From contig DATDWR010000017.1 in the NCBI GenBank assembly GCA_035289605.1, positions 29,981-93,980 on the forward strand: 64,000 nt of DNA, read 5' to 3'. The notes under the pieces were generated by a model, which ran no database searches, was not told the DNA's origin, and worked only from the letters and a program-made list of their open reading frames with translations. Source of the DNA: Candidatus Nanoarchaeia archaeon. Its GTDB lineage: Archaea; Nanobdellota; Nanobdellia; SCGC-AAA011-G17; GW2011-AR18. Below, piece after piece: positions 14,182-50,458 of the stretch (positions are counted from its first letter, which is position 1; every line of letters begins with the position of its first letter). The translations under genes and the position numbers were made by a program.

Positions 14182-14702
14182 AGAGACTAAATATCGGGTG
14201 CGGACCAGACATAAAACCAAAAGAAGAAGGATGGATAAACCTAGATGAATTAAAGCTCAAAGGCGTGGACATAGTGCACTCACTAAACAAATTTCCATAC
14301 CCATTCAAGGAGAATGAAATAGACGAAGTGTTCTGCTCGCACATACTAGAGCATGTAGACGATTTAGTAAAAGTAATGAAAGAAATTCACAGAATATGCA
14401 AGAACAATGCGAAAATAACAATAAGAGTGCCACACTTCAGCTGCGGAACAAACTACAGGGATCCTACGCATAAAAGATACTTCTCATACTTCACATTTGA
14501 CTTCTTTGACGAAGAATGCTATTATGATACACCAAAATTCAAGACTGAAAAAAGAGAACTAAACTTTTCAAGACTAGCTTTTACTTCAATAAATTACATA
14601 ATGAATCCAATAATAAATCTGTCGCCAGCAATATATGAAAGATTCTTCTGCTGGATGCTGCCAACATCAGAGGTTATAGTAGAACTAAAGGTGATAAAAT
14701 GA
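14178..14702 (+). CDS. Class I SAM-dependent methyltransferase
   Basis: 'LNIGCGPD' Gly-rich SAM motif and 'CSHILEHV'. 4-nt overlaps with both neighbours. Confidence 0.7.
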   Translation: MKRLNIGCGPDIKPKEEGWINLDELKLKGVDIVHSLNKFPYPFKENEIDEVFCSHILEHVDDLVKVMKEIHRICKNNAKITIRVPHFSCGTNYRDPTHKRYFSYFTFDFFDEECYYDTPKFKTEKRELNFSRLAFTSINYIMNPIINLSPAIYERFFCWMLPTSEVIVELKVIK

Positions 14703-22507: not shown

Positions 22508-23209
22508 TCATACTCCTTGTAACATAATCTGCTCAATAATTCTATCCATATTAACATGGTGGTGTGTTTTTATTTCCCCATGTTGGTCTGTAGGAGCAGC
22601 ATAAGCATAATTCCTTCCCGAATCATTATCAAATGAACAGCCATAAAGGTGTATTTCCGAAGCACTCATAATAGAAGCAATTTGCAAGGCACAACCACTT
22701 ACTGATCCTCCTCTAAAAATATTTTCTTGAGTTTTACTAACATTAATCTTTCCAGATTTAGTATAATCAAAATATAAGTGAGGTGGGCAGGGTATTAACT
22801 CTGGACGAAAACTTTCATAAACACAATCATTTGAAGAAATAGAATCTTCCATTAATGTAAAAATATAATGCAAAAGTTCTTCCTCGTCAATATAATCATT
22901 ATACAAAAAATCAGATAAATCTCTTTGCAGTCTTTCTCTATCATCTGGACTTGGAAAGCATAGCTTATCAAATGGAGATATATATGAACTTACTATTCTA
23001 GTTGTTGTATATGGAGAAGCATAAAACCAATCTCTTTTAGACCCTCTAATATCTGCACAAACAAAATATGTTGAAGCTACAACTTTAGCAGCGCCATTAA
23101 CAGCAATGCTTATTGGCTGCTCTCCTTTGAAAAGGCCCAATGTAGGGCTTGAACCTAATACTGCAACAGATATCCCAGCGTGTTTTCCACGAATACTATT
23201 AACCATCAA
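22508..23209 (-). CDS. Hypothetical protein, possibly DUF115/MptE-like or sialyltransferase-like
   Basis: 'VAVLGSSPTL ... IAVNGAAK' and 'IHLYGCSFD' loosely resemble the GxGPSL and C-terminal motifs of DUF115/Cst-type proteins. Weak, from memory. Confidence 0.35.
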   Translation of the reverse strand: MMVNSIRGKHAGISVAVLGSSPTLGLFKGEQPISIAVNGAAKVVASTYFVCADIRGSKRDWFYASPYTTTRIVSSYISPFDKLCFPSPDDRERLQRDLSDFLYNDYIDEEELLHYIFTLMEDSISSNDCVYESFRPELIPCPPHLYFDYTKSGKINVSKTQENIFRGGSVSGCALQIASIMSASEIHLYGCSFDNDSGRNYAYAAPTDQHGEIKTHHHVNMDRIIEQIMLQGV

Positions 23210-27547: not shown

Positions 27548-29071
27548 ATGGCAGACAAGGTATTTATTCTAGGAATCGACGGAGGAACTTTTAGAGTAAT
27601 AGACGAACTAATAAAACAAGACAAGCTACCAAACTTCAAAAAAATAAAAGAAAACGGAAGCTCTGGAATACTAAACTCATGCATACCCCCTACAACTGAT
27701 CCTGCATGGCAAGTACTATTTACTGGAAAAAACCCTGGAAATGTCGGCTTTTACTTCAATGCAACATATCTTGGAGATGAAGAATACCAAAAAAGGCTTG
27801 TAACAAAAGTAGAAACAGAAACAATATGGTCAATACTATCAAAAAACAACAGAACAGTCGGAGTGTATAATATACCATTCACTTATCCTGCAGAGAAGGT
27901 AAACGGATTCATGGTCTCTGGATTGTTTTCTCCAGGTTTTGAAAGACTAACATACCCTGAAGAACTAAAAAAAGAGCTTGGAGAAGACTACTGCATAAGC
28001 ATACCTGACTTTCAGTATTTAACTAAAGAAGAACAGATTAAAAGAAGCATAGAAGAAATAAATAAAAAATTCAACACAGGAATAAAACTTTATAAAAAAT
28101 ACAAACCTGAATTCTTCATGATGGTAATAGCAGAAGTGGACACAGTACAGCATTTTTTTTGGGAAGGGAAAAAAATAAACAAAACAATAGAAGAGTGTTA
28201 TTTATTGCTTGACAAATACCTTGGAGAGATACTTGAAGCAATAAATGAAGAAACAACCTTATTTATTGCAAGCGACCATGGATTCTGCAAGGCAAAATAT
28301 GATATACTACTTAACAGCGTAATGCTTAACAAAGGATACATAAAACTAAAAAATGAAGAACAGAAAACAGAAAAATTCAAGAACAAAATCGCAAAATTCC
28401 TAGATAAATTCGGGCTGAGAAAAACAATATCAAGAATAATAAGCAAAAATCTAGGACAAGTGTTCACAACAGGCTTTGACAAGATAGACTGGCCCAATAC
28501 AAAAGCATTCTCTTATGGCGTGGGAGGAATATACATAAACCTAAAAGGAAGAGAACCAAAAGGATGCGTGAAAAAAGAAGAATATGAAAAAACTTTGAAT
28601 GAAGTAGAAAAAGAGCTACTAGAATTAATAGATCCAGAAACACAAGAAAAAATAATCAAGAAAATTTATAGAAAGAACACAATATACAAAGGCAAAGCAA
28701 CAGAAAGAATGCCAGACCTTATATTAATACCAAATGAGAAATACGTATTCAGGGACTACTTCGGTACTGAATGGAAAAAAGAGTCAGTATTTTCAGGAAA
28801 CCATGAGCCTGAAGGAATATTCCTTGCCTGCGGTAAAGACATAAAAAAAGGACACAAAGTGAACTGTGACCTTGTTGACATAACACCGACAGCACTTCAT
28901 ATACTAAACAAAAACATACCGCTTGATATAGACGGAAAAATTGTGAAAGACATATTCAAAACACAATCGAAACATTACAAAAAGAAGACTAAAAAGCAAA
29001 CAGAGAAAGAGTATAAAACACAGAAAGAAAAAAATCTTATAAGTAATTTAATAAAAGACCTAAAAGTGTAA
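27548..29071 (+). CDS. Alkaline-phosphatase-superfamily enzyme (type I phosphodiesterase/nucleotide pyrophosphatase-like)
   Basis: 'FILGIDGGTF', 'FIASDHGF' and 'GNHEPEGIF' are metal-ligand motifs of the AP superfamily. Confidence 0.75.
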   Translation: MADKVFILGIDGGTFRVIDELIKQDKLPNFKKIKENGSSGILNSCIPPTTDPAWQVLFTGKNPGNVGFYFNATYLGDEEYQKRLVTKVETETIWSILSKNNRTVGVYNIPFTYPAEKVNGFMVSGLFSPGFERLTYPEELKKELGEDYCISIPDFQYLTKEEQIKRSIEEINKKFNTGIKLYKKYKPEFFMMVIAEVDTVQHFFWEGKKINKTIEECYLLLDKYLGEILEAINEETTLFIASDHGFCKAKYDILLNSVMLNKGYIKLKNEEQKTEKFKNKIAKFLDKFGLRKTISRIISKNLGQVFTTGFDKIDWPNTKAFSYGVGGIYINLKGREPKGCVKKEEYEKTLNEVEKELLELIDPETQEKIIKKIYRKNTIYKGKATERMPDLILIPNEKYVFRDYFGTEWKKESVFSGNHEPEGIFLACGKDIKKGHKVNCDLVDITPTALHILNKNIPLDIDGKIVKDIFKTQSKHYKKKTKKQTEKEYKTQKEKNLISNLIKDLKV

Positions 29072-29113: not shown

Positions 29114-29341
29114 ATGACAAATCAAGATAAAAATGTTCAGATAAACATACCAAAAGATCTTGCTGAACAAATACAGAAAAAAATTGAAGGAACAGAATTT
29201 GACTCAGTTTCAAACTACGTAACTTACGTTATGAAGCAAGTTCTAAAAGCTAACCAAGACAAAACGAAAGAAAAAAAAGAACTCACCAAAGAAGAAGAGG
29301 ATAAGATAAAAAAGAACCTTCACTCAATGGGCTATTTATGA
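29114..29341 (+). CDS. Ribbon-helix-helix (CopG-like) protein
   Basis: 'VQINIPKDLAEQIQKKI...DSVSNYVTYVMKQVL' fits a beta-strand/helix/helix RHH pattern. ATGA overlap with the downstream gene. Confidence 0.45.
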   Translation: MTNQDKNVQINIPKDLAEQIQKKIEGTEFDSVSNYVTYVMKQVLKANQDKTKEKKELTKEEEDKIKKNLHSMGYL

Positions 29342-31170
29342 TGAAGAAAAATGTTATTATGATATTAGTTGATGGAGCAAGAGTAGACTATTTGAAAAAA
29401 TATCCTAATTTTTCTAAGATTTCTAATAGAGGAACTTTTTTATCAAATGGCTGCACATATGCACCTTACACTATAGCTTCACTTCATGCAATATTCAGCG
29501 GAGTATACGGAAATAAAAGCGGAACAGATAATTACTACGGAACTTATGATTTTAATAGTGAAGATTATGCTACACTCGCAGAATATTTTAAATATAATGG
29601 ATTTGTAACTTATGGAGACACAATAAACGAACTTGTAGCACCAAAACAAGGATTTGATATATTTACAATACACAATGAATTTGAAGACAACCTAACAGAG
29701 AGGCATCAAGCTATAATAAAAGAAGTCAAACAACATTCAGAGAAAAAGAACCAACCTTTCTTCTTATACTTACACTACAGCAACATACATACAGGAATAA
29801 AATTAAATGTCCTAGACAAATACAATAACTTTAGCCAAGAATATTTCGGAAAAACTGAAGAAAATAAAAAAGATTATGAAATTTATTTCAGCAAATCAGA
29901 TGAATATATAGGCGAAATAATTAATTTTATAGAAAATCAAAAATTAATTGATGATTCCATAGTATTCATTACAAATGATCATGGCATAAGCACAGGGGAA
30001 AAGATAGGTGAAAGAGCATATGGAGTTTTCTGCTATGAATATACAATAAAAACATTTTTAATATGTTTAGGAGAAATCTTCCCCAAAAAAGAAATAAAAA
30101 ATCTATTCAGAACAATTGATATAACCCCCACAATAATTAATATAATGGAATTTAAACCTATGTTAGGGTACAAAAAAATGGATGGAAAAAGCCTTCTTCC
30201 ACTTATAAACGGAAAAGATACATCTCAGAGAATTGCATTTATACAATCAGGAAATCCAATGAAGGAAAATAATCCTCCAAAGAAACCAAATGTACACGCA
30301 ATTAAGACTGATGAATGGAAACTAATATTCAATGAAGCTAATGGTAGTTATGAATTATATAAAATAAACGAGGACAAAAACGAAGAGAATAATCTATACA
30401 ATAATCCAAATTATCTAGGTATACAAACAGAATTACAAGGTTTGTTGAATAAACACCTACAACCTAACATCACCCAAATAGATAATTTTCAGCCTACAAA
30501 AGAAAAAAATACTGTAAATATAGAAAGAAGCTTAACTGAATTAGGATACTGGAACAATGCATATTCTAAAATAAATTATTTTGGATCCGGACCTACAAAG
30601 CTCGCTTATCAAGCAGCAGATTATTTAGTAAATGAAGATATCAGAAAAATCCTAGATCTTGGAGCAGGCCAAGGAAGAGACAGTTTATACTTTTCTCAAA
30701 TGGGTTATGATGTAACAGCCATAGACTTTTCAAGGAATGCAATAAAGTCCATACAAGAAATTATATCACACCATAAAACAAATGTAAAACCTATTTTATA
30801 TGACATAACGAAGCGACTACCATTTAATGATCTATATTTTGACTGCGTCTATTCTAATCTAACTTTTCAATTCCTAAATAAGCAACAGATGAATAGTACA
30901 ATAAGTGACGTGCATAGAGTTTTAAGGCCGGGAGGATTATTCATAGCCTCAATAAAAAATCATAAAGATAAGTACTTTATTATTGGTAATAAGATAAATA
31001 ATAGTTCTACAGAATCAAATGGGATACTAAGATATTTTTTAGATGAGAAGGAAACAAAGGAACTAATAAAAAACTTTGAAATTATAGATTTTTACGAAGA
31101 GAAACACATAAATCTTGACAAAAGCAAAAGCTGTTATTGGGTAATTGTAGCAAGGAAAAAAACTAAATAA
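29338..31170 (+). CDS. Fusion protein: sulfatase-like AP-superfamily domain plus C-terminal class I SAM methyltransferase
   Basis: N-terminal 'MILVDGARVDY' and 'ITNDHGIS'. C-terminal 'ILDLGAGQGRDSLYF', 'FDCVYSNLTFQF' and 'LRPGGLFIA'. Confidence 0.75.
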   Translation: MMKKNVIMILVDGARVDYLKKYPNFSKISNRGTFLSNGCTYAPYTIASLHAIFSGVYGNKSGTDNYYGTYDFNSEDYATLAEYFKYNGFVTYGDTINELVAPKQGFDIFTIHNEFEDNLTERHQAIIKEVKQHSEKKNQPFFLYLHYSNIHTGIKLNVLDKYNNFSQEYFGKTEENKKDYEIYFSKSDEYIGEIINFIENQKLIDDSIVFITNDHGISTGEKIGERAYGVFCYEYTIKTFLICLGEIFPKKEIKNLFRTIDITPTIINIMEFKPMLGYKKMDGKSLLPLINGKDTSQRIAFIQSGNPMKENNPPKKPNVHAIKTDEWKLIFNEANGSYELYKINEDKNEENNLYNNPNYLGIQTELQGLLNKHLQPNITQIDNFQPTKEKNTVNIERSLTELGYWNNAYSKINYFGSGPTKLAYQAADYLVNEDIRKILDLGAGQGRDSLYFSQMGYDVTAIDFSRNAIKSIQEIISHHKTNVKPILYDITKRLPFNDLYFDCVYSNLTFQFLNKQQMNSTISDVHRVLRPGGLFIASIKNHKDKYFIIGNKINNSSTESNGILRYFLDEKETKELIKNFEIIDFYEEKHINLDKSKSCYWVIVARKKTK

Positions 31171-32677
31171 ACCTTCTAATTATCCTACTAAATATCTTAA
31201 TCTTCAACTTATTTTCTACGGTCTCTATCATCTTCAAATCTGTCTGGTCAGGAACCTTAAACAGAAGCAGCAAAAAGAAATAAACTGCAGAGAACACAAA
31301 AGAAGACACTACAAAAGAAATTAATGAGGCAGATATAGTTCCAGAAAAGTAAAGTATTAAACTGGCGAGCAATACAGCAAGAAGAGACTTGAAGAATCCC
31401 TTGTTATATGGATTAACAGGAATATAAGCATAAACACAAACCCAGCTCACAATCTTAAGAATTAACAATGAAAGCATAGTACCTATAGCAGCACCAACAA
31501 TTCCATACTTAGGAATCAACAAATAATTAAACACTATATTAGAAACAAGGCCAACAAGCCAAGTCAGCAGATTAAGCTTGGTTTTCCCTATAATATTAAT
31601 CATCTGCCCTGTAGGGCCTAGAAGAACACTGAAGAAATAACCTATAGTCAACAAAACGAACGAAAATGAACCAGCAACATAAACATCTCCAAATAGTAGC
31701 CTTATAATCTGCGAAGGAAAGAAAAAGAAAACCACAACCATAGGAACTGTAAGGTAAAAATTCCAGGCCGTCACCCTGTTAAATATATCTCGAATTTCAC
31801 TAGTTTTGTGATCGTGCAAGAGCCCTGAAAGAACAGAAATCAACAAGCCATTAAATGCAAACGCAAATGTAGGAATAAGATTTGCCAATGAAGCAGCAGC
31901 ATTGTATATACCAACCTCAACCTCTGTCTTGAAGTAACCAAGCATTACAGTATCAACCCATTTTGTAAGGATAAAAAAAGCACTAGCAAAAAGAAGAGGA
32001 AGAGAAAATGAAAACAGAGCAGGCTCCAACTTATACCTAAATAACTTATCAAGAACTTTTTTCCTTCTAAGCATAATAAATATTGAAAACACAGAAAGAA
32101 CAACAGCAAACAAATGAGCAAGGCTCGCACCAAAAACACCGAAACCAAACAAAACCAAAACAACTGTAATAGCTAATTTAAATACGCCCTCGCCAATATC
32201 CCTAAAATAAAACTGGTAATCAATTCTTTTAATACCTCTACAAACAGCAAACAATATTTCAGAAACAGCATAGAACGGAATAATTAACGCGTAAACTTGA
32301 ATTATTCTTGAAAGAGATGAATTCTTAAAAAATGATAAAGCAATGTAATCTGAGAAAAAGAAAACTAAAAATGAAAGCATCAAAGAAAATGGAATAACAA
32401 TATAAAAAGCCGTGTTTACTATGCTGTTGACTTTCTCCTTATTATTAAAATAACCAACAAAACGCTCAACACCCTGCTCAAAGCCCAAAAGAGAAATAAA
32501 ACCAACAATGCCAAGAACAGACTGGCCTATGCTCAACATACCAAACTGCTCAGGACCAAGACCCCTTGCAACAATTATCTTGTAGATATAATTAATAAAT
32601 TTAGAAAAGAACATACCTAGCAAAACAATTCCTGCGCCCTTCACTATCAGCTTCAGAGAAGAATCATTTTCATCCAT
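31163..32677 (-). CDS. Polysaccharide/oligosaccharide flippase (MOP/Wzx-like)
   Basis: About 14 TM helices and 'IVARGLGPEQFGMLSIGQS'. Confidence 0.75.
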   Translation of the reverse strand: MDENDSSLKLIVKGAGIVLLGMFFSKFINYIYKIIVARGLGPEQFGMLSIGQSVLGIVGFISLLGFEQGVERFVGYFNNKEKVNSIVNTAFYIVIPFSLMLSFLVFFFSDYIALSFFKNSSLSRIIQVYALIIPFYAVSEILFAVCRGIKRIDYQFYFRDIGEGVFKLAITVVLVLFGFGVFGASLAHLFAVVLSVFSIFIMLRRKKVLDKLFRYKLEPALFSFSLPLLFASAFFILTKWVDTVMLGYFKTEVEVGIYNAAASLANLIPTFAFAFNGLLISVLSGLLHDHKTSEIRDIFNRVTAWNFYLTVPMVVVFFFFPSQIIRLLFGDVYVAGSFSFVLLTIGYFFSVLLGPTGQMINIIGKTKLNLLTWLVGLVSNIVFNYLLIPKYGIVGAAIGTMLSLLILKIVSWVCVYAYIPVNPYNKGFFKSLLAVLLASLILYFSGTISASLISFVVSSFVFSAVYFFLLLLFKVPDQTDLKMIETVENKLKIKIFSRIIRRFI

Positions 32678-32678
32678 A

Positions 32679-33839
32679 TTAAACTCCGATGTATTTGCTC
32701 CATCCCCCAGAAACAGAAATATTGTAATAATAATTTAAGACTATTGCCCATCCTACAACAATTAATAAAATCAAGACATATTTCAAAAACTTGTTTCTAA
32801 AGTCAAGACCTTCTGCCACAAAAAAAACATAAAATGGAACAAGAAAACTTAAGTACCTGAAATAATACAAAGTTGTTCTTCCGCTGCTTAAAAGTGCTAT
32901 AAACGGATTAATTACTAGAGGAAAAATAAATATGCTAAAAAATATTATAGAAACAAAAATGGCTTTATCTTTGTCTTTTCTGTAAAAATTATAAATACCA
33001 TACAACATCAGCAAGCTCAAAATTCCAGCAAGCACAAACAAGTACTGCATATCATTAAGAGCTGAAATATTTATCATAGAAGCGAACTTGAAAAACGGAT
33101 AGGGGACTTCATGAAGCTTTAATGACTCAAGAGCAAAATGACCGGGCTGAACAATAGTATAATTAAACTGCTTAAGGAAACGAGGAAGGTAAAGCAAGGC
33201 AAAAAACGCAACCACTAAAAGCCCATAAAAATATCTTTTAATATCAATATTTTTATTCTTAAACCAAAAGAATAATACAGCCAAGAAATGAGCCCCGATA
33301 ATAAACACAGAATAGAAATGTGTGTAGAATGAGGCAATATATAAAGGAGCTAAGAGATAAATCATTTTTTTATTATTCTCAAAAATAAACCTATACAAAG
33401 CCCAAGTTGCCAAAACATAAATCAGCGAAAGCAAGATATAAAACCTAAGCTGAGAAGAATATATTACATGCATCGGGTTCAAGGCAAGAAGAAAAGACGA
33501 AAGAAGCGCAATTTTCTTATCGGATAATTTCAAGGCTAAAAAATAAAACACAATAATTCCAATAATCCCTATGAGAATACTTACAATCCTGGCAAAATAA
33601 ACAGAATCATAAATATTTAAGAGAACACCTATAAACAAATAATAACCAGGAGGATGAACATCCTTTGATAGGATAGAATCAAAATCTCCCTTAATCAAAA
33701 CTTTAGAATAATTCACGCTAAAGTCTTCGTCAGTGCCAAACTCCTTGTCATCTAGATTATAGACTCTAAGGAAAACAGCCAAGACTAATATTATTATAAG
33801 CATCCAGTTTGAAGCAACAAACTTTGTAAATTTGTTCAT
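32679..33839 (-). CDS. GT-C-like polytopic membrane protein (ArnT/PMT_2-like)
   Basis: About 11 TM helices. The first loop has the acidic 'EFGTDEDFS'. 1-nt gap to the flippase gene. Confidence 0.5.
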   Translation of the reverse strand: MNKFTKFVASNWMLIIILVLAVFLRVYNLDDKEFGTDEDFSVNYSKVLIKGDFDSILSKDVHPPGYYLFIGVLLNIYDSVYFARIVSILIGIIGIIVFYFLALKLSDKKIALLSSFLLALNPMHVIYSSQLRFYILLSLIYVLATWALYRFIFENNKKMIYLLAPLYIASFYTHFYSVFIIGAHFLAVLFFWFKNKNIDIKRYFYGLLVVAFFALLYLPRFLKQFNYTIVQPGHFALESLKLHEVPYPFFKFASMINISALNDMQYLFVLAGILSLLMLYGIYNFYRKDKDKAIFVSIIFFSIFIFPLVINPFIALLSSGRTTLYYFRYLSFLVPFYVFFVAEGLDFRNKFLKYVLILLIVVGWAIVLNYYYNISVSGGWSKYIGV

Positions 33840-33927: not shown

Positions 33928-34653
33928 ATGGATATAGAATATTCAATAATAATACCTGCATACAATGAAGAAAAAATAATATCCAACACGATAGAAGAGA
34001 CTACAAATTTTCTTAAGAAGACAAACAAGAGCTTTGAGCTTATTATATCAAATGACGGATCAAAAGACAGAACTGCAGAGATTGTAAAAAATAAACAAAA
34101 AAATTACAAAGAACTAAAACTTTGCGACAACCAAAAAAACGAAGGAAAGGGCTCAGCACTTACAAATGCATTCAAAATGGCAAAGGGAAGATACATACTA
34201 TTCATAGATGCAGATTTAGCCATAGACATAAACCTATTTCCCAAACTAATAGAACCTCTAAAAAAAAATACAGCAGACATTGCAATAGCATCAAAACATG
34301 TGAAAGGAGCAAGTGTGGAATACTCATTAATTAGAAGTATCACAAGCAGAACATACTCAGCACTTGCGAGAATAATTTTAGGGCTAAAAATAAAAGATTG
34401 CCAGTGCGGATTCAAGGCATTTAGAAAAGAGACAATCAAAAAAATACTTCCAGATATGAAAAACAAAGGATGGGGGTGGGACACTGAAGTTCTTGCAAAA
34501 GCATCGTGGAAAGGCTACAAGATAATTGAGGTGCCTGCAAAGGTTGTCAATATACCTGGAAGGGAAAGCAAAGTAAGCATAATAAAAACAGTAAAAAGCA
34601 TGCTGAAAGAACTTATAGAGCTACAAAAAGAAAAGAAAAAATACGCTAACTAA
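33928..34653 (+). CDS. Family 2 glycosyltransferase (dolichyl-phosphate sugar synthase-like)
   Basis: 'YSIIIPAYNEEKII', 'ISNDGSKD', 'IDADL' and 'QCGFKAF'. Confidence 0.85.
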   Translation: MDIEYSIIIPAYNEEKIISNTIEETTNFLKKTNKSFELIISNDGSKDRTAEIVKNKQKNYKELKLCDNQKNEGKGSALTNAFKMAKGRYILFIDADLAIDINLFPKLIEPLKKNTADIAIASKHVKGASVEYSLIRSITSRTYSALARIILGLKIKDCQCGFKAFRKETIKKILPDMKNKGWGWDTEVLAKASWKGYKIIEVPAKVVNIPGRESKVSIIKTVKSMLKELIELQKEKKKYAN

Positions 34654-34835
34654 GAACAATCCTTCTGATCCTCAACCTTGCAGTCATCACCAACACAAAC
34701 CTCAACTCCATCACACACAGAAGTAACTGCCTCATCTTTTTCTACAACTGTAGCGCCAGTCCTGCCAACATCTTTAGAACAGCCTGCAACTGCAAGCAGT
34801 ATCAATACAATTATTAGTACGGCAACAAGTTTCAT
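34650..34835 (-). CDS. Small secreted Cys-containing lipoprotein
   Basis: 'LILLAVAGCSKD' is a signal plus lipobox-like Cys. 61 aa. Confidence 0.4.
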   Translation of the reverse strand: MKLVAVLIIVLILLAVAGCSKDVGRTGATVVEKDEAVTSVCDGVEVCVGDDCKVEDQKDCS

Positions 34836-35588: not shown

Positions 35589-35598
35589 TTTATAAATA
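35589..35598 (+). promoter_or_regulatory. TATA-box-like element upstream of the surface-protein locus
   Basis: 'TTTATAAATA' starts 42 nt upstream of ATG 35631, with a GGTG Shine-Dalgarno-like motif in between. Confidence 0.4.
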
Positions 35599-35630
35599 GG
35601 TTCACTACATTTTAGTTTGGTGTAAAGTTG

Positions 35631-36332
35631 ATGCAAAAAAAAGGGTTTGTAACTATCTTAACATTGTTTGTTTTATTCTTAGTTTTAGGATTACTTATCG
35701 GATATTTCTTTACAAGTGATAGTGGTATAGGAAAAATCACAGGCGCAGCAACATCAACTGTAGGAAATTTCACTGCAAATGTTGTGTCAGGAATAGCATG
35801 CACATGGAGCAATGCAGCACTTAATGTAAGCTTTGGAGGAGGTCTTGCACAGTCGTTGACACAAGGAGCAGTATATAATGCTTCCAAAAACTATGAAGGG
35901 TATATAGGCGGTGGATTACAAATATTGGGACATAACTGGACACTTTACAATGTAACAGCTGACTCTACAAACACAGACAGCGTAAACATAACAATGTCAG
36001 GAAGGCATTTACAATCAGGAGCAAACATACTAGGAATAACAAATGTAACATGGATGTCAAACCAGACAAACGGAAATGCATCAGTAGCTTCAGGGTCACA
36101 AGAAGGACATAACTTTACATATAGAGGGAACACAACATTATTTGAAGGATTCAACTTAACATTAGTAGCAGACAGTGATCCTAAACTAATATTAAGATTA
36201 AGAAACTTCTCAAATCAACTAACAGCAGGAAGCACAGTATGGTACAGATTCTGGCTGATGGTTCCAGGAAGCCAAGTACAAGCAACATATGCTGGGAATT
36301 ATACTCAAACATGCACAGCAGCATTAACATAA
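35631..36332 (+). CDS. Exported, sequon-rich beta-strand protein A1 (pilin-like candidate)
   Basis: N-terminal 'KKGFVTILTLFVLFLVLGLLIG' hydrophobic segment and 14 N-x-S/T sequons. Paralogous to 37526..38083, sharing 'GNFTANV[VI]S..ACT', 'NV[TS]W.SN.T', 'VW.R.WL..P' and 'GNYT..C'. Confidence 0.6.
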   Translation: MQKKGFVTILTLFVLFLVLGLLIGYFFTSDSGIGKITGAATSTVGNFTANVVSGIACTWSNAALNVSFGGGLAQSLTQGAVYNASKNYEGYIGGGLQILGHNWTLYNVTADSTNTDSVNITMSGRHLQSGANILGITNVTWMSNQTNGNASVASGSQEGHNFTYRGNTTLFEGFNLTLVADSDPKLILRLRNFSNQLTAGSTVWYRFWLMVPGSQVQATYAGNYTQTCTAALT

Positions 36333-36335
36333 AAA

Positions 36336-36905
36336 ATGAAAAAAATCGCCATAATAATAATTGGAATGTTTCTTTTTAACTTAGCATTAGCAAGTGCAAG
36401 TATAGGAATAGGCGTTTCACCATCAAAAGTCTTTGACGTCCTAGAAAGTAAAGAAAGAAGAAATTACACTTTTATAATATATAATACAGGCAATATTGAT
36501 GTCAAGGCAAGAATGTCATTAACAGACGACCTTGAAAAATGGGATGTAAAATTCTATCCTGAAGAATTTATATTAAAGCCTGAGCCTGAGCCTCATAGAC
36601 TGCCACCAGTAAACGGCCAGACTGTTGTTGTAAGCCTGAAGGCGCCTGTGAGCAAGCCAAAGAAGTTTACAGGACACGTAGTAGCATCAGCAGGACCATC
36701 AGATGGATCATCTTTTGGAGGATCAGGAGCAGTAGCCTCAAGAATGGAGATAGAAGTATTAGAACCAAAACATTTCTGGGATTACTGGACAAAAAAACAG
36801 ATAATAACAGGAAGCGTTGTAACAACCCTTGTTTTATTGATGCTCATCGGGCTATTTATAATGAAGAAGAAGAGACTCAGGCTTGGATTTGTAAGAAACA
36901 ATTAA
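36336..36905 (+). CDS. Membrane-anchored single beta-sandwich-like protein B1 (chaperone/assembly candidate)
   Basis: Signal peptide, 'IGIGVSPSK', 'YNTGN', 'PEPEPHRLPPVNG' and 'GAVASRMEIEV', then a C-terminal TM with basic tail 'KKKRLRL'. Paralog of 36946..37485. Confidence 0.6.
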   Translation: MKKIAIIIIGMFLFNLALASASIGIGVSPSKVFDVLESKERRNYTFIIYNTGNIDVKARMSLTDDLEKWDVKFYPEEFILKPEPEPHRLPPVNGQTVVVSLKAPVSKPKKFTGHVVASAGPSDGSSFGGSGAVASRMEIEVLEPKHFWDYWTKKQIITGSVVTTLVLLMLIGLFIMKKKRLRLGFVRNN

Positions 36906-36945
36906 GCGAAAAACATAAAAAACAGTTAAATTTCTTCTATTTACA

Positions 36946-37485
36946 ATGAAACTAGCAATTATATTTATCCTACTTTTATTGATTACAAACACAGTACAAG
37001 CAAGCGTAGGAATAGGGATATCGCCAGCAAAGATAACAGACACACTACATAGCAAAGAGGAAAAGGAACATACTTATACAGTCTACAACACAGGGAACTT
37101 GAACATTACTGCAAAATTAGAAGCTGACGGAGAGATAAAAGACTATATAGAATTCTATCCTGAAGAAACAAACCTACTGCCAGAACCTGAACCACATAGA
37201 CTACCACCAGTAAACGGAAAGCAGATCACTATGAAAATAAAGACCCCAAAAACAAAAGAAAATATAACATTAAAAGGAAATGTAATTGCATATGTAAATC
37301 CAGGATTTGGAGGACTTATTACAACAGGAGCAGTTGCATCTAAAGTAGAACTAACAATAATACCAAAAGATGAAGAATTAAAATTAAATAAGAAACATCT
37401 TGTTGGAATACCACTAATAGGGCTTGTAGTCCTTCTAGTTATAATAAATGTGAGGCATCTAAGAAAAAAAATTATTCGAAAGTAA
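36946..37485 (+). CDS. Membrane-anchored single beta-sandwich-like protein B2 (paralog of B1)
   Basis: Same architecture and motifs as B1: 'VGIGISPAK', 'YNTGN', 'PEPEPHRLPPVNG', 'GAVASKVELTI', and a C-terminal TM plus 'RHLRKKIIRK'. Confidence 0.6.
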   Translation: MKLAIIFILLLLITNTVQASVGIGISPAKITDTLHSKEEKEHTYTVYNTGNLNITAKLEADGEIKDYIEFYPEETNLLPEPEPHRLPPVNGKQITMKIKTPKTKENITLKGNVIAYVNPGFGGLITTGAVASKVELTIIPKDEELKLNKKHLVGIPLIGLVVLLVIINVRHLRKKIIRK

Positions 37486-37525
37486 TAAAAACAAATATGT
37501 TTCTAAATAATACAAGAGGTGTTGA

Positions 37526-38083
37526 ATGGGAAGAATTTATCTGTATGCTGCTTTGGCTATAATAACATTAGCAGGTTTTTTAATGGGCCATTTTATAAAA
37601 ATTACAGGATACCAAGTACAAACTGGAAACTTCACTGCAAACGTGATAAGTGCGGTAGCATGCACTTTTAGCTCCCACGCCTTGAACATAACTTTTGGTG
37701 ATGATATTGATCCTGGGAAAGCGTACAATGCAACGCGTAATTTTGTAGACAATTTGAATCATTCATGGCACAATATTACAATAGATTCTACAAGCACTGT
37801 TAATGCAAACCTATCTCTCAAGGGGAACGACTTTATTTCTGGAGGAAATGTTATTGGCATAGGCAATGTATCATGGGGTAGCAATACTACACACCAGAAT
37901 GGAACTAATATGGTATATCCTGGAACTGCTAACATAAGCACGAGCTATGACGCAACGAACCTAATAGCTTCAAACGAGGAGCCTGGCAGTCCTGTGTGGC
38001 ACAGGATGTGGCTCAATATTCCTTCAGGAACAACGGCAGGACAGTATAAGGGAAATTATACAATCAGGTGTGTAGAAGCATGA
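37526..38083 (+). CDS. Exported, sequon-rich beta-strand protein A2 (paralog of A1)
   Basis: GAGGTG Shine-Dalgarno-like motif 4-5 nt upstream. N-terminal TM, 11 N-x-S/T sequons, and shared motifs with A1. ATGA overlap with the next gene. Confidence 0.6.
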   Translation: MGRIYLYAALAIITLAGFLMGHFIKITGYQVQTGNFTANVISAVACTFSSHALNITFGDDIDPGKAYNATRNFVDNLNHSWHNITIDSTSTVNANLSLKGNDFISGGNVIGIGNVSWGSNTTHQNGTNMVYPGTANISTSYDATNLIASNEEPGSPVWHRMWLNIPSGTTAGQYKGNYTIRCVEA

Positions 38084-39222
38084 AAAAAATCTTACTTGCA
38101 ATCTTGCTTAGTGCTGTATTATGCAGTTTTCTAGTAGTGCCAGCTACAGAAACAAATGTTGATTTGTATTTTGGAGTTTCCGAAGATGCTGAAGATGGTT
38201 CTTCTGGGGGCGGAGGTGCTGCTGGAGGAGGCGGAGGTGGCGGAGGAGGAGCTAAAGTAAAAGCATTACACATACGCCAAGTACTAAAAGTTGCTCCTGA
38301 AATTCTCAAAATAAAACTAAAGCAATACGAATCCTTTGTATCATCATTCAAAGTGTACAATAACTACAGCAAGCCTGTTGAAGTGAATATAGACTTTGAC
38401 CAGTTAAAAGATAAAATACAAATTTCCAACTATTTAGATACAATACTTATAGACCCTAATAAAGAGCAAGATGTAAAATTTAACATAACAGCAGTCAAAG
38501 AAACCAAACCAGGAATTTACACTGGAAAAATCAAAATTGGTTCTGGAGAGCTAGAAAAAGAAGTAAGCATAATTATAGAGGTTGAATCCAGGAAGGTATT
38601 ATTTGATGTTTCGCTATCTGTTCCATCAAGATCTAAAACAATTTATCCTGGAGGCGAGCTTGTCATAAGCCCTACAATATTCAACCTTGCAGACGTGCCA
38701 AAAACAGAATTACTGGTTACTTATTTAATAAAGGACTTTGACGGAAACACCGTACAGGAAACACAAGAAAAACTCATGATGGAAACACAAGTCAGCTTTA
38801 CAAAAACACTGCAACTTCCTGAAGACATAAAAACAGGAAAATATGTTGTAAGCGTGTATGTAAAATATAAAGACTCTTTCGGAATATCAAGCGAGACATT
38901 TGATGTAATAGAAGAAGAAAAGCCCAGCATAATAAATTATTTACAAGATAAACCGGTATTTATACTTTCACTGCTTGCTACTGTAATAATTGTGCTAGCA
39001 GCATTTGCATTCATTAGCCATACAATATTAAAATATAAGAAAGTGCCTGTAAAGAATGTAATAAAAATTTACAAAAATCGAAATACAACTAATAATTCAG
39101 ATTCTAAAGAAAAAATAAGAAGACAACTAGACAGCCTTAACAGGAGCTACCAAGAGGGATATATAACAAAAAAGACATATGAAGAAACCAAACAGAAACT
39201 GGAGAAATCAAGAAAAAGTTAG
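38080..39222 (+). CDS. Membrane-anchored surface protein C: signal peptide, poly-Gly linker, two Ig/CARDB-like modules, TM, cytoplasmic SHOCT-like tail
   Basis: 'MKKILLAILLSAVLCSFLVVPA', 'GSSGGGGAAGGGGGGGGGA', beta-rich modules ('FKVYNNYSKPVEVNIDF', 'GKYVVSVYVKYKD'), TM 'VFILSLLATVIIVLAAFAFI', and tail 'QEGYITKKTYEETKQKLEK'. Confidence 0.6.
   Translation: MKKILLAILLSAVLCSFLVVPATETNVDLYFGVSEDAEDGSSGGGGAAGGGGGGGGGAKVKALHIRQVLKVAPEILKIKLKQYESFVSSFKVYNNYSKPVEVNIDFDQLKDKIQISNYLDTILIDPNKEQDVKFNITAVKETKPGIYTGKIKIGSGELEKEVSIIIEVESRKVLFDVSLSVPSRSKTIYPGGELVISPTIFNLADVPKTELLVTYLIKDFDGNTVQETQEKLMMETQVSFTKTLQLPEDIKTGKYVVSVYVKYKDSFGISSETFDVIEEEKPSIINYLQDKPVFILSLLATVIIVLAAFAFISHTILKYKKVPVKNVIKIYKNRNTTNNSDSKEKIRRQLDSLNRSYQEGYITKKTYEETKQKLEKSRKS
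38197..38253 (+). repeat. GGN-codon low-complexity tract (poly-Gly/Ala/Ser linker)
   Basis: Directly visible 'ggttcttctgggggcggaggtgctgctggaggaggcggaggtggcggaggaggagct'. It creates a poly-Pro shadow ORF on the minus strand. Confidence 0.85.
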
Positions 39223-39326: not shown

Positions 39327-39713
39327 ATGGCTGATAGTGATATAGTAGAGATTAATGAAATATTCGACAGTAAAGAGGAAAGGGAAAAAAAGAAACAAAA
39401 TACTAACCTGAAGCCAGAAAGAAACAAGAATAAAAATGATATTGCATTAAAAGCTGCATTAACAGAACTTAGCCATGAAATAAATGAACTAAGCAAAGAA
39501 AGAAGAAGATTAGAAAAGGGACTTTCTCAAGACAGAAAAAAAACAGAAGTTAGAAAATTACAGGAAACTCAGTTAAGAGATAAGATCTCTAAATTAGCAT
39601 CTATGGAAAACCAACTATTTGATGACATTGTCAATAAAGAGCATAAGCTTTCAGACATTAAAGAAAAACTAACAAAGATAAGGGCTGCAAGAACAGAACT
39701 TACAGGAATATAA
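39327..39713 (+). CDS. Charged coiled-coil protein
   Basis: 128 aa, Lys/Glu-rich and heptad-like. TATA 'ATTTATAAAT' lies about 30 nt upstream. Confidence 0.45.
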   Translation: MADSDIVEINEIFDSKEEREKKKQNTNLKPERNKNKNDIALKAALTELSHEINELSKERRRLEKGLSQDRKKTEVRKLQETQLRDKISKLASMENQLFDDIVNKEHKLSDIKEKLTKIRAARTELTGI

Positions 39714-39726
39714 TTAGAATGCATTT

Positions 39727-40167
39727 ATGAGAGACGACCAATTTCTAAATGAAAAACTAGAAAGCATATGGAACTTCTTATTTTACGACATTGAAAAAAA
39801 GAACAATGTTTTAATAAAATTCAAAGGGAAATGGAAGAACAAATTTGGGCATATAAGAAGACTAAAAAATGGAGACAGCGAGATAGTTATAAACGGCTAT
39901 TTCAAGAACGAGAAAATCCCGGAGTATGTGATAGACACAACAATAGCACATGAATTAGTGCATTATATACACGGCTTTAACAGCCCAATGCCTAAGATGT
40001 ACAGGCATCCCCATAAAGGAGGCGTAGTAAACAAAGAACTGAAAAAAAGAGGATTTGGAAACATGCTCAAACTTGAAAAGAAATGGATAAGAAATGAGTG
40101 GAAAAACATAGCTAGAGAGGAATTTAGAAATCCTGAGAAGAGGAAAAGTTTCTTTAGATGGTTTTAA
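39727..40167 (+). CDS. SprT-like zinc metalloprotease
   Basis: 'IKFKGKWKNKFGHIRRLKNGDSEIVINGYF' followed by 'TIAHELVHYIHG' (HExxH), as in SprT/WLM-like domains. Confidence 0.6.
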   Translation: MRDDQFLNEKLESIWNFLFYDIEKKNNVLIKFKGKWKNKFGHIRRLKNGDSEIVINGYFKNEKIPEYVIDTTIAHELVHYIHGFNSPMPKMYRHPHKGGVVNKELKKRGFGNMLKLEKKWIRNEWKNIAREEFRNPEKRKSFFRWF

Positions 40168-47265: not shown

Positions 47266-49110
47266 ATGACAAAGATCGTAGGAATAGACCTTGGCACATC
47301 TAATAGTGCTGCAGCAGTAATGCAAGCAGGAAGACCAGTAATAGTTCCAAGCGCAGAAGGAACAAGCTTGTATGGAAAAGCATTCCCAAGCGTTGTAGCA
47401 TTCACAAAAGATGACCAGATGCTAGTTGGAGAGCCTGCAAGAAGACAGGCAGTATCAAACCCAGAAGGCACAGTCATAGGTGCGAAAAGAAAAATGGGCA
47501 CAGACTTCAAGTACAGAATACACGGAAAAACATTCACACCGCAACAGATATCAGCATTTATACTACAAAAAATCAAAAGAGATGCAGAAGAATTCTTAGG
47601 AGAAAAAGTTGAGAAGGCAGTAATAACTGTGCCAGCGTACTTTGACGACAATCAACGTCAAGCAACTAAAGATGCGGGAACTATTGCAGGATTAGAAGTT
47701 GTAAGAATAGTAAATGAACCTACTGCTGCATCACTAGCTTATGGAATAGACAAACAAGAAAAAGAATCTAAAATTCTAGTCTTTGATTTAGGAGGAGGAA
47801 CGCTAGATGTAACAATCATGGAACTAGGAGATGGAGTCTTTGAGGTTAAAGCGACAAGTGGGGATACACAATTAGGCGGAACAGACATGGATCTTGTATT
47901 AATGAATTTCATAATAAAAGAATTTGAGAAACAAACGGGAATAGACTTAAATGATGACAAGACAGCTGTGCAGAGAATAAGAGAAGCAGCAGAAAGATCA
48001 AAAATAGAATTAAGCACAATGATGGAGACAGAAATAAACCTTCCATTTATACACGGAACAAATAATTTACAGATGAAGATAACAAGATCAAAACTAGAGG
48101 AATTGATTGAGCCAATAGTTGCAAAATGCAAAAAGCCATTAATGCAGGCAATAAAAGACGCAAAACTAGAAATTGGAGAAATACATAAAATAATACTAGT
48201 TGGCGGACCAACAAGAATGCCAATAGTAAGAAAATTTGTAGAAGACACTCTAGATAGGAAAGCAGAAAGAGGCATAGATCCAATGGAGTGCGTAGCATTA
48301 GGAGCAGCTGTACAAGCAGGAGTATTAGGCGGAGAAGTAAAAGACATACTATTGCTAGATGTAACACCATTAACACTAGGAATTGAGACCCTAGGAGGAA
48401 TAAGGACTCCATTAATACAGAGAAATACAACAATACCTACAAAGAAAAGCCAAGTATTCAGCACAGCAGAAGACAACCAGACAGCTGTAACTATACACGT
48501 ACTACAAGGAGAAAGAGAAATGGCTACAGACAACAAAAGCCTGGGAAGGTTTGACTTGGTAGGAATACCTCCAGCACAAAGAGGAATACCACAAATAGAA
48601 GTAGCATTTGACATAGACGCAAATGGAATAGTGCATGTTTCAGCAAAAGACTTGGGAACAGGAAAAGTACAAAGCATAAAAATAACAGCAACAGAAAAGC
48701 TAAGCAAAGAAGAAATAGAAAAAATGCAGAAAGAAGCTGAGAAGTTTGCAGAAGATGACAAGAAGAAAAAAGAAGGAGCAGAAATAAAAAACCAAGCAGA
48801 AGCTCTAGTTTATACAATAGAGAAAACAGTGAAAGATCTTGGAGAGAAACTAGAGAAAGAGAAACTAGCAGAAGTAGAAAGAGAGAAAAATGAATTAAAA
48901 GACCTGATAAAAGCAAATGACACTACGAAACTAAAGAAAAAAATGGATGAACTGAACAAGCTAGTACACGAGATGTCATCCAAGATGTATCAAGAAGCAA
49001 TGAAACAGGAAAAAGAAGCAAAAGACCATGAAGTGAAGAAAGATAATAAAGAGAAAAAAGACAAAGTTGTAGATGCAGAAGTGATAGATGATGAAGATGC
49101 GGAAAAGTAA
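47266..49110 (+). CDS. dnaK: Hsp70 chaperone DnaK
   Basis: '[10 protein letters not shown]', 'DLGGGTLDV', '[10 protein letters not shown]' and '[15 protein letters not shown]'. GGAGG Shine-Dalgarno motif upstream. Confidence 0.97.
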
Positions 49111-49345
49111 AATGCCGAGATACAGGTTAACTAGACAAGATTGGGATGATATTAGCGACTCTTTAGAAGAAGACTCTATCGGGGTGATTGTTCAATAGAA
49201 CGTGAGGAAATAAGTAAAGAAACTGTGGAAATTAATTCAATAGTGGACATGGATTATCAAGCTATATTTAATTACCTTATAGAGAGAAGAAAGAATATTA
49301 TATATAAAAAGAAAAACAAATAAACCTCTTTAAAATTTTATTTTT

Positions 49346-50458
49346 ATGGCAGAAGACTACTATGAAACATTAGGAGTAAGTAAGAATTCCTCTAAAGAGG
49401 AGATTAAAAAAGCTTACAAAAATCTAGCTAAAAAATACCATCCAGATGTAAGCAAAGATCATGGCGATGGAGAAAAATTCAAAAAAATATCAGAAGCATA
49501 CGCAGTTTTAGGCGACGATACGAAGAAAGCACAATATGACCAATATGGAGAAGCAGGATTCCATCAAAGATATTCACAAGAAGACATATTCAGAGGATTT
49601 GACATAAATGACATATTTGGAGATTTCTTCGGAGGAGATAATCCATTTGAAATGTTTTTCAGCGGAGGATCAAGAAGAAGAACAAAAAGAGGACGAGATT
49701 TAAGATACGAACTAAGCATAAGCTTTGAAGAAGCATCACTAGGTACTACAAAAGAAATAGAAGTTGAGAGATTACTAAGCTGTGAAGAATGCCATGGAAC
49801 AGGAAGCGACGACGGAAAACTAAATATGTGTGAAAACTGCAACGGAGCAGGACAAGTAAGAACAAGCAGAAGAACACCATTCGGAAGCTTCACACAAGTA
49901 ACAACATGCGAAGAATGCAACGGAGAAGGGAAAACAATAACACATCCATGCAAAAAGTGTAGTGGAAGTGGAAGAATTAAGAAGATAAAAACTATAAAAA
50001 TAAACATACCAGCAGGTGTAGACAATGGCTCACAACTAAAAATAAGCAGAGAGGGAGAAGCAGGATTAAGAGGAAGCAATCTTGGAGACTTGTATGTTGT
50101 AATACATGTCAAGCCAAGCGAAATATTTCACAGAAGAGAATATGACTTAATATTAGAAGTGCCAATAACTATAAGCCAAGCAGCTTTAGGGGATGAAATA
50201 AAAGTACCTACGCTAGACAAAGAAGTCAGTATAAAAATACCTGAAGGAACACAACCTGGAACACAATTCAGGCTGAAAGGAAAAGGAGTGCCTTATGTAG
50301 ATGGGTATGGAAGGGGAGACTTGTATGTCATTGCAAATGTAGCTATACCAAAGAAAGTAAACAAAGAACAGAAAAAAATATTTGAAGAACTAAAGAAAAG
50401 CGAAGAAAAGAAGAGCTTAATTGAAAGAATAAAAGAATTCGCGAAAGAAAGACTTTAG
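49346..50458 (+). CDS. dnaJ: Hsp40 co-chaperone DnaJ (type I)
   Basis: J domain '[31 protein letters not shown]', a G/F region, and four CxxCxGxG repeats. Confidence 0.95.

Follow-up and report, generated by a model that had tools for sequence, protein, structure and literature searches.

A five-gene archaeal cluster of paired pilin-like and PapD-like exported proteins: a candidate for usher-less surface assembly by β-strand complementation

The genes and their products

The subject of this report is a compact cluster of five genes in a DPANN archaeon (Nanoarchaeia/Woesearchaeota), known from the metagenome-assembled genome (MAG) GCA_035289605.1 and recorded as 'Candidatus Nanoarchaeia archaeon'. 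It lies in a 64,000-nucleotide stretch of contig DATDWR010000017.1, hereafter the window, with the gene for ribosomal protein S7 as its immediate 5' neighbour, and consists of two pairs of paralogues, A1/A2 and B1/B2, and a fifth gene, C. An earlier note on this DNA, made from the sequence alone, had suggested an usher-less, chaperone-type system for building surface filaments. The layout it described is reproduced by the open reading frame (ORF) calls: the five genes are co-directional, with gaps of 3-40 nt, the spacings in the order A1-B1-B2-A2-C being 3, 40, 40 and -4 nt, and the A2 stop and C start codons share the letters ATGA. Equally, all five products appear exported or anchored, as it held, with hydrophobic N-termini in five out of five and a C-terminal transmembrane (TM) segment in B1, B2 and C.

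35589-35598, forward strand: TATA-box-like TTTATAAATA, 33 nt 5' of the A1 start codon, read from the sequence
35631-36332, forward strand: A1, 233 aa, ORF call
36336-36905, forward strand: B1, 189 aa, ORF call; HLC86303.1, annotated as hypothetical
36946-37485, forward strand: B2, 179 aa, ORF call
37526-38083, forward strand: A2, 185 aa, ORF call; HLC86305.1, annotated as hypothetical
38080-39222, forward strand: C, 380 aa, ORF call

The element TTTATAAATA is probably the archaeal promoter of a five-gene operon, and no intergenic space inside the cluster is comparable to that 5' of A1. A scan of the locus for promoters and terminators of bacterial type was uninformative, the host being an archaeon. 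None of the five proteins matched Pfam or NCBIfam above the curated thresholds. When profiles of the three families were run against PDB sequences, they yielded a GH123 hairpin, a chance match to gp120, artefacts of the poly-Gly linker and a marginal match to CEP192, and nothing else. Elsewhere in the window there is no further copy of A, B or C and no giant gene carrying an A domain (see below).

The members of each pair are clearly related, as had been claimed: A1 and A2 share 33% identity over 229 columns (E 7e-37), B1 and B2 share 40% identity (E 4e-42), and every motif quoted in the earlier note is present. A1 matches the hidden Markov model (HMM) of the A family with an E-value of 1e-50. 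The main features of the A proteins are as follows.

A1, residues ~6-27: N-terminal hydrophobic segment
A1, 35733-35744, forward strand: 'KITG'
A1, 35763-35789, forward strand: strand GNFTANVVS
A1, Cys57 and Cys228: cysteine pair within a sequon-rich β-sandwich
A1, 36234-36314, forward strand: C-terminal hairpin TVWYRFWLMVP ... YAGNYTQTC
A2, residues 2-22: N-terminal helix
A2, 37598-37609, forward strand: 'KITG'
A2, 37625-37651, forward strand: GNFTANVIS
A2, Cys46 and Cys182: cysteine pair within the β-sandwich
A2, 37994-38071, forward strand: C-terminal hairpin VWHRMWLNIP ... YKGNYTIRC

N-x-S/T sequons are concentrated in the A proteins, with 14 in A1 (6.0 per 100 aa; background 0.67) and 11 in A2, compared with one in B1 and two in B2; the density in A1/A2 is ~9 times the window background. 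An exhaustive phmmer search with A2 as query yields an A family of 114 clusters at 50% identity. Some three quarters of these are standalone proteins of ~180-240 aa, the remainder measuring 330-2100 aa. In 29 of 31 large representatives the A domain (~150 aa) is found at the extreme C-terminus, behind cargo domains that include PQQ β-propellers, Laminin_G_3, CARDB, G8 and subtilases. Twenty close relatives preserve two invariant cysteines, located close to the first strand and within the last, along with 'FG', 'NA[ST]', 'R.W' and 'Y.GN.T'.

Directly after the N-terminal hydrophobic segment, 40 of 60 standalone A proteins carry 'TG', usually as [ILV]TG, and many of the others have AxA-type sites. 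Either type of site leaves ~8-12 residues ahead of the conserved 'sN[VF]T..' strand. On this sequence pattern, we infer that signal peptidase cleaves A proteins at the conserved xTG. Variants of the motif include KIT[ST]K, SITGK and QFTGH (A-family members P0008-P0121; locus L021, 11923-13479; locus L022, 9239-9835), and several C-like proteins encoded in these clusters have a motif of that type (C homologues P0133 and P0136). It may be a processing or sorting signal common to the whole system. Five of the 60 standalone proteins, and several giants, have a cytoplasmic domain of ~100 aa before the TM segment.

The AlphaFold2 model of A2 (mean predicted confidence, pLDDT, 93.6) comprises the helix of residues 2-22, a confidently placed segment outside any sheet (residues 23-45) and a ten-strand sandwich. 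Foldseek found no match for it in the PDB at E<1e-3, the best values being E >= 2e-3 with TM-scores of 0.3-0.5. Among its top 50 matches are 15 N-domains of GH123-type glycosidases, one antibody complex and 34 proteins of donor-strand-exchange fibres. The last group includes CupE, CfaB, CsuA/B, FimA/F/G/I, the pilin domains of PapA/PapH/PapG, Caf1, TLP-1a (an environmental donor-strand-exchange fibril) and, at E 0.04-0.08 only, Hyper2 and CanA. The GH123 N-domains are the best matches, interleaved with fibre subunits, and ordinary immunoglobulin-like (Ig) domains are nearly absent from the top 50. In the PDB, ordinary Ig domains far outnumber donor-strand-exchange subunits. No archaeal pilin or archaellin and no Pam entry (see below) appears in these top 50. 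At the sequence level the A family shows sub-threshold similarity to GH123 and NEW3 (NPCBM_assoc) domains, mainly over the last ~35 residues, which form the final hairpin 'W..v.vP.gq.aG.Y.G..t'. The suggestion that A belongs with donor-strand pilins therefore survives in part: nearly all the matches outside GH123 are to such subunits, but the matches are weak. A1 and A2 are weakly supported by the modelling as exported, glycosylated, pilin-like β-sandwich proteins.

The features of the B proteins are these.

B1, N-terminus: signal peptide, cleavage ..ASA↓S
B1, residues 22-142: single PapD-like Ig domain
B1, 36579-36617, forward strand: invariant loop PEPEPHRLPPVNG
B1, 36714-36761, forward strand: conserved F-G hairpin FGGSGAVASRMEIEVL
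B1, 36801-36863, forward strand: TM helix, followed by a basic tail
B2, N-terminal part: signal peptide and PapD-like Ig domain, paralogous to those of B1
B2, 37180-37218, forward strand: PEPEPHRLPPVNG
B2, 37306-37362, forward strand: conserved segment FGGLITTGAVASKVELTII
B2, 37399-37452, forward strand: TM helix, followed by a basic tail

Between the signal peptide and the C-terminal TM helix, the AlphaFold2 model of B1 (pLDDT 83.8) has one Ig sandwich, the F-G hairpin of which is long. In it, PEPEPHRLPPVNG forms a 12-residue loop, and the F-G loop (FGG.SG) is invariant yet poorly ordered; conservation in the family is strongest in the first strand, the F-G loop and the G strand. Foldseek returns 177 PDB matches at E<1e-3, mostly to domains of the PapD-like, ASH and MSP types; FaeE, FimC, Caf1M, CsuC, SfaE and DraB represent the pilus chaperones among them (leading matches E 1e-7 to 2e-5). 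The sub-threshold Pfam matches of B are mainly to HYDIN/VesB-like, Cep192 and DUF1573 Ig domains, which we take to be members of the PapD-like clan. The commonest one, in 14 of 15 family members, is DUF6385, which has no clan assignment. PapD_N and PapD_C were not matched by any of the 15 members even at E<=10. The family is rare, with 13 clusters in 5.8 billion proteins, and every named one comes from Woesearchaeota or Nanoarchaeia. The model thus supports B1 and B2 as PapD-like Ig domains tethered by a C-terminal TM helix.

The earlier note had held PEPEPHRLPPVNG to be conserved even at the nucleotide level. This does not stand: 33 of its 39 nucleotides are identical between B1 and B2, all six differences are synonymous and fall at third codon positions, and third-position identity is 7/13 inside the loop against 33/58 elsewhere.

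In locus L016 a very distant A-like protein without cysteines (P0082) has as its neighbour, at 627-1148, a NEW3-type protein with a signal peptide and the sequence 'AEPREPLPEKPE', which recalls the PEPEPHRLPP loop of B. This neighbour is undetected by the B HMM. Pairing of A with B may extend past what HMMER can see.

The fifth protein, C, has the following layout.

C, N-terminus: signal peptide
C, 38155-38178, forward strand: short amphipathic strand NVDLYFGV
C, 38203-38250, forward strand: poly-Gly tether
C, PGIYTGKIKI at 38509-38538, forward strand: within the B-like Ig domain, located by hhalign
C, 38599-38745, forward strand: second Ig-like domain (LFDVS..YLIKDFDG)
C, 38953-39015, forward strand: TM helix
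C, 39106-39210, forward strand: cytoplasmic coiled-coil tail

Profile alignment of the B family with the first domain of C (hhalign probability 95.6%, E 1.2e-8) indicates that this domain is homologous to B, although it is without the PEPEP loop. All 14 C homologues keep the same arrangement of signal segment, short amphipathic strand, Gly-rich tether, two Ig-like domains and TM helix, and half of them the cytoplasmic coiled-coil tail. The strand follows the pattern V/I/L-x-L/I/F-x-I/V/F, and the GGG of the tether is invariant in the alignment. The family has weak matches to the PapD-like clan in Pfam and the PDB. In Pfam, C itself has sub-threshold Ig-type matches only, and its tail a sub-threshold match to GvpG (E 2.5e-5; 24.8 bits, cut-off 30.6). 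Of the initial description of C, the signal peptide, poly-Gly linker, two Ig-like modules and TM helix are borne out, while Pfam offers neither CARDB for the modules nor SHOCT for the tail. That the A domain ends giant proteins, that the first domain of C is B-like and that C bears a strand on a poly-Gly tether are points that go beyond the earlier note.

To the eye, the tail of C (..LNRSYQEGYITKKTYEETKQKL..) resembles ..Y.QGKISYE.Y.. in the ~100-aa cytoplasmic N-terminal extensions of A-family members P0031, P0054, P0072, P0097, P0101 and P0110. A tail motif common to both is not established, there being one marginal match (P0031, E 0.029). Nor was a shared N-terminal module of A and C upheld: an HMM of the A region after the TM segment gave E>1 against C proteins, and the likeness 'KIT[GST].A[ST]S..strand' is by eye only.

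Conservation of the gene arrangement

Searches with local HMMs reveal A-B(-C) adjacency in ~15 loci of 31-57% GC, in MAGs of Woesearchaeota/Nanoarchaeota and in unassigned contigs, bearing out the expectation that these genes would be syntenic in related genomes. For breadth beyond Woesearchaeota/Nanoarchaeia, the evidence is GC content and the archaeal ribosomal protein genes in locus L007. The gene orders seen are listed here.

A-B-B-A-C: the window, L001/L010 and L008
A-B-A-B-C: L013
A-B-C: L011, L012 and L014
A-C: L015
large protein-A-B: L018 and L020
large protein-A-A-B/C-like: L017 (a precomputed match to ASH is recorded for one neighbour)
large protein-B-A-B-C-like: L022
Laminin_G / large-A / A / A / B / 519-aa protein: L021

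Genes ending in an A domain tend to have one B each, and giant A-domain genes adjoin the A-B clusters in L001, L007, L011, L017, L018, L021 and L022. Where the order A1-B1-B2-A2-C recurs (L001/L010 and L008), orthologues share 50-69% identity, compared with 42-47% for paralogues. The five-gene arrangement is therefore old and conserved, and, on these sequence comparisons, the duplication that gave A1/B1 and A2/B2 predates the divergence of the three genomes. In L021 the B-like protein ends in a cytoplasmic zinc-ribbon (CxxC...CxxC), and genes for a PilB-like ATPase (T2SSE) and two PilC-like proteins (T2SSF) lie 3' of the cluster, at 13817-17312.

Candidate mechanism and its alternatives

The earlier note knew of no described family with this gene architecture. 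Two do share its logic, Pam pili (10.64898/2026.03.03.709456) and the WxL/WxLIP proteins (PMC10599100). Neither has any detectable sequence relation to the present genes (Pam being compared through its published description) and neither is described in Archaea.

The cluster appears to work most like the Pam pili of candidate phyla radiation (CPR) bacteria. These are built from an operon with two TM-anchored PapD/FimC-like chaperones and PamR, a protein with an N-terminal strand, two fibronectin type III (FnIII) domains and a TM helix, and no usher, a scheme proposed from cryo-EM structures of the filaments and AlphaFold predictions of the complexes; the survey behind it covered bacteria only (10.64898/2026.03.03.709456). 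As in our cluster, an ultrasmall single-membrane organism has an usher-less operon, Ig-like subunits with a C-terminal acceptor domain (putative in the case of A) and, in the pilin operon, two PapD/FimC-like proteins that each end, like B1 and B2, in a TM helix. PamR is laid out as C is, with a strand at the N-terminus ahead of two tandem Ig/FnIII domains and a C-terminal TM helix, a likeness of architecture only. There are differences too. Pam pilins (PamA/B) are two-domain proteins with an internal linker donor strand, whereas A1/A2 are single-domain ones; PamC and PamD likewise have two domains, against one in B; Pam is bacterial and has been seen by cryo-EM, our cluster is archaeal and known from genes alone.

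The chaperone-usher systems of Gram-negative bacteria offer a more distant parallel. B1 matches the fold of the N-terminal domain of FimC, Caf1M, CsuC and FaeE (E 1e-6 to 1e-5), A weakly matches FimA/G/F, PapA, Caf1, CsuA/B and CupE, and the subunit domain of larger adhesins such as FimH and PapG is C-terminal, as is the A domain in the giants. Chaperones of this pathway touch their subunits by way of strands A1 and G1. Chaperone-usher systems, however, possess an usher and an outer membrane, while the cluster has no usher and its host is a single-membrane archaeon; they use one chaperone for many subunits, while here each A has one B, which is membrane-anchored and single-domain; and their subunits are unlike A in its heavy load of sequons and in the Cys pair linking first and last strands. 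None of the profiles PapD_N, PapD_C, Fimbrial and SCPU in Pfam was matched by the cluster or the family members searched. Lacking an usher, a two-domain chaperone and a profile match, the cluster is, judged on sequence, not a member of the chaperone-usher family.

Four kinds of archaeal filament are also relevant: Sulfolobus threads, the TasA-like bundling pili of Pyrobaculum, the cannulae of Pyrodictium (CanA/Hyper2) and haloarchaeal tafi (DUF1102). These are Sec/Tat-exported, glycosylated archaeal structures whose Ig or jelly-roll subunits are joined via N-terminal donor strands; tafi have in addition paralogous subunits, a Laminin-G tip protein and the TM-anchored TafF. Tafi-type clusters carry the signal peptidase TafD and DUF5305, and neither is found in our window by motif search or by Pfam on the scanned ORFs; there is no signal-peptidase motif in the window at all. 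No match of A to the DUF1102, TasA/Peptidase_M73 or CanA families was obtained in Pfam/NCBIfam at E<=1 or in sequence-profile searches of the PDB. A reading of the A N-terminus as cognate to TasA/SipW is not borne out by any match to TIGR04088 or Peptidase_M73. No PapD-like partner or chaperone is reported, in the descriptions consulted, for threads, bundling pili, cannulae or tafi; cannulae are explicitly termed chaperone-free and the tafi authors state that a chaperone-usher mechanism cannot operate in archaea. An archaeal system with PapD-like partners would therefore be new among them.

Taking these comparisons together with the features of the locus, we tentatively favour, by analogy, the view that the operon gives its DPANN host a self-contained module for Sec-dependent assembly at the surface, working through β-strand complementation with membrane-anchored chaperones. 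The argument starts from the order, duplication and synteny of the genes, the membrane topology and predicted folds of their products, the excess of sequons and the C-terminal place of the A domain, and leads to a scheme in which A would be cleaved at TG, would physically contact both B and C, and would polymerise through strand insertion. A1 and A2 would be exported, heavily N-glycosylated subunits, each left with a free N-terminal strand after signal cleavage at xTG. Each A would have its own tethered, single-domain PapD-like partner, B1 or B2, to receive and cap the newly exported A domain at the membrane. A domains would then be linked by strand exchange, both to one another and to large adhesin- or protease-type proteins that are encoded elsewhere and end in an A domain. 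B would be displaced, or the chain lengthened, by the N-terminal strands of A and C. Through its tethered strand, C would terminate the assembly and anchor it in the membrane. An usher would be unnecessary because there is only a single membrane to cross. In the giants the A domain sits C-terminally, where tip adhesins have their pilin domains. The sequon load of A1/A2 and the glycosylation island beside the cluster (see below) speak for exposure of A at the cell surface. β-Strand complementation is the simplest mechanism in the sense that it uses all the parts, namely the A domain, the dedicated B, the tethered strand of C and the giants with their A domain. A chain, in particular, is favoured by the tethered strand of C, the conserved N-terminal extension of A and the enrichment of pilins among the fold matches.

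The original interpretation is to that extent partly supported: B is PapD-like and TM-tethered, with chaperones of the chaperone-usher systems among its best fold matches, but it has one domain and not the two of PapD. This last difference, which sets B apart from the two-domain boomerang of PapD, FimC and PamC, is one of several points that count against strand-exchange assembly. The fold matches of A are weak, the best of them are GH123 N-domains, which are complete sandwiches, and the sequence similarity to GH123/NEW3 covers the very hairpin that ends the A domain. Depending on geometry, the Cys pair joining the first and last strands could close the donor-strand site. The PapD-like fold also serves unrelated purposes, MSP and ASH being examples. 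With a single B for each A domain, B resembles a stoichiometric partner more than a recycling chaperone. A cytoplasmic domain before the TM segment of some A proteins suggests anchoring in the membrane rather than release, and the presence of the A domain on subtilases is easier to reconcile with a general tag for anchoring than with the tip of a pilus. Finally, the HMM of the A N-terminus failed to detect the N-termini of C (E>1).

Several of these points would sit comfortably with a static complex for anchoring or display, comparable to WxL/WxLIP, in which A would be a C-terminal anchor tag and B and C permanent membrane receptors, possibly acting via an inserted hairpin strand, with no polymer formed. 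In the WxL/WxLIP (DUF916-DUF3324) clusters of Firmicutes there are small domain-only proteins and large proteins with the domain at the C-terminus, like the A family, and an adjacent partner of signal peptide, two Ig domains and TM helix (PMC10599100, PMC9772566). AlphaFold predicts that a hairpin strand of WxLIP completes the WxL sandwich (PMC10599100, PMC9772566). Our clusters follow the same logic, down to the adhesin domains that precede the C-terminal domain in large proteins. The single B per A-domain gene and the presence of the domain in subtilases and in lectin- and propeller-type giants favour static anchoring over a chain, and the invariant, poorly ordered F-G loop of B resembles the WxLIP hairpin, which becomes ordered when bound. 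There are also weak matches to WxLIP_PGBD in four of 15 C-family, two of 61 A-family and one of 15 B-family members (E 0.002-0.13). These are far under threshold, however, and are the only ones seen to the WxLIP entries (PF06030/PF11797). A1, A2 and 61 family members have neither a Pfam match to WxL (PF13731) nor the dual W-x-L motif. WxL systems are bacterial, linked to peptidoglycan and viewed as a complex, not a fibre, and peptidoglycan is not expected in these archaea. They have no counterpart of the tethered strand of C, and static anchoring leaves unexplained both that free strand on its poly-Gly tether and the conserved N-terminal extension of the small A proteins. The enrichment of polymerising pilins among the fold matches of A is a further argument against it. 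We regard static anchoring as the main rival of the chain, and as somewhat less likely.

Alternatively, the proteins could be ordinary envelope glycoproteins, co-expressed Ig-like components of a lectin-like or S-layer-associated kind. Strands would then not be complemented, A and B would not recognise each other specifically, and the likeness to pilins and PapD would be that of generic β-sandwiches. The GH123/NEW3-type hairpin is indeed the best sequence and structural match of A, such sandwiches belonging to glycosidases and not being known to function in assembly; the Pfam matches of B and C are to generic Ig families; and heavy sequon loads beside a glycosylation island would suit any surface glycoprotein. 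Against this, A and B are strictly adjacent and paired one to one across loci of 31-57% GC, and B matches PapD-like folds specifically, not CARDB, FN3 or antibody-like ones. The invariant loops of B (PEPEPHRLPPVNG and FGG..GAVAS) argue for a specific binding function, and the matches of A outside GH123 are nearly all to donor-strand-exchange subunits. This explanation seems improbable.

Least probable by far, and rejected here, is that A1 and A2 represent type IV pilins of the archaeal kind, put together by PilB/PilC machinery from another part of the genome, with B and C as accessories: the start of A1, MQKKG↓FVTILT, fits the class III signal pattern (FlaFind), a helix of ~21 aa precedes a glycosylated β-sandwich and the PilB/PilC-like genes of L021 lie just 3' of its A-A-B cluster, but the class III-like motif is found in only one of 60 standalone members and not in A2, the conserved motif comes after and not before the hydrophobic segment, the A domain also ends giants, some A proteins have long cytoplasmic N-termini, and the top 50 structural matches hold no archaeal pilin or archaellin. 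As the earlier note had observed, no type IV pilus ATPase, PilC or prepilin peptidase is encoded by the 40 other ORFs of the window that were scanned, nor is there an usher; such pilus machinery is likewise missing from the genes listed for the other long loci, L021 being the sole exception.

Were strand complementation through tethered partners to operate as proposed, the implications would be considerable. DPANN archaea probably lead an attached life on host cells, by means that are poorly understood, and CPR bacteria are their bacterial counterparts. A PapD-like gene beside every subunit gene in DPANN would overturn the chaperone-free picture of archaeal filaments, and, should strands be swapped as predicted, the cluster would give Archaea their first known system of the chaperone type. 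It would set DPANN archaea beside CPR bacteria and their Pam pili, a parallel between ultrasmall symbionts, and bears on the evolutionary reach of chaperone-assisted strand exchange. The most far-reaching form of the proposal is more doubtful than the mechanism itself. It would have the cluster encode the first chaperone-assisted donor-strand-exchange fibre in Archaea, its tethered PapD-like chaperones and glycosylated subunits mounting the giant adhesins and proteases of DPANN episymbionts, with a principle common to Gram-negative bacteria, CPR bacteria and DPANN by ancient descent or convergence, and with the A domain as a new, widespread archaeal C-terminal tag for sorting and assembly. The A domain does mark giant surface proteins bearing lectin, propeller and protease domains, which hints at how they are mounted on the cell. 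A (114 clusters), B and C are three uncurated families annotated as hypothetical, and curated models of them would improve the annotation of archaeal MAGs.

Genes around the cluster

Directly 5' of the sequon-rich A genes is a glycosylation island of ~30 kb (window positions 1-34653), a neighbourhood that is not conserved at the related loci. Its glycosyltransferases (GT) number four of family GT1, three of GT2 and one of GT4, and it also contains several methyltransferases, a polysaccharide deacetylase and a hexapeptide acyltransferase. The located genes of the island are as follows.

2985-4010: radical SAM/SPASM gene
9558-10586: GT4 gene, AglH/WecA-like
11254-12534 and 31163-32677: two Wzx-like flippases
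15861-17333 and 32679-33839: two PMT_2 genes
27548-29071 and 29338-31170: sulfatase/phosphodiesterase genes

Four large ORFs of the island have no Pfam match at E<=1e-5: 7178-9430 (reverse strand, 750 aa), 17841-18668 (forward, 275 aa), 22508-23209 (reverse, 233 aa) and 23242-24885 (reverse, 547 aa). These may be unrecognised membrane glycosyltransferases or oligosaccharyltransferase-like proteins. Between a GT2 gene and the S7 gene there is a 61-aa ORF (34650-34835, reverse strand) with a lipoprotein-like N-terminus, MKLVAVLIIVLILLAVAGC.

On the other side, 3' of C at 39327-40167, two small genes without Pfam matches encode a charged coiled-coil protein of 128 aa and, to judge by its HELVH motif, a possible small metalloprotease of 146 aa; neither gene is kept beside the cluster in other loci. 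Further downstream, at 47266-50458, genes for DnaK (614 aa) and DnaJ (370 aa) are followed by those for an AAA+ protein, a RIO kinase-like protein and an M48 peptidase.

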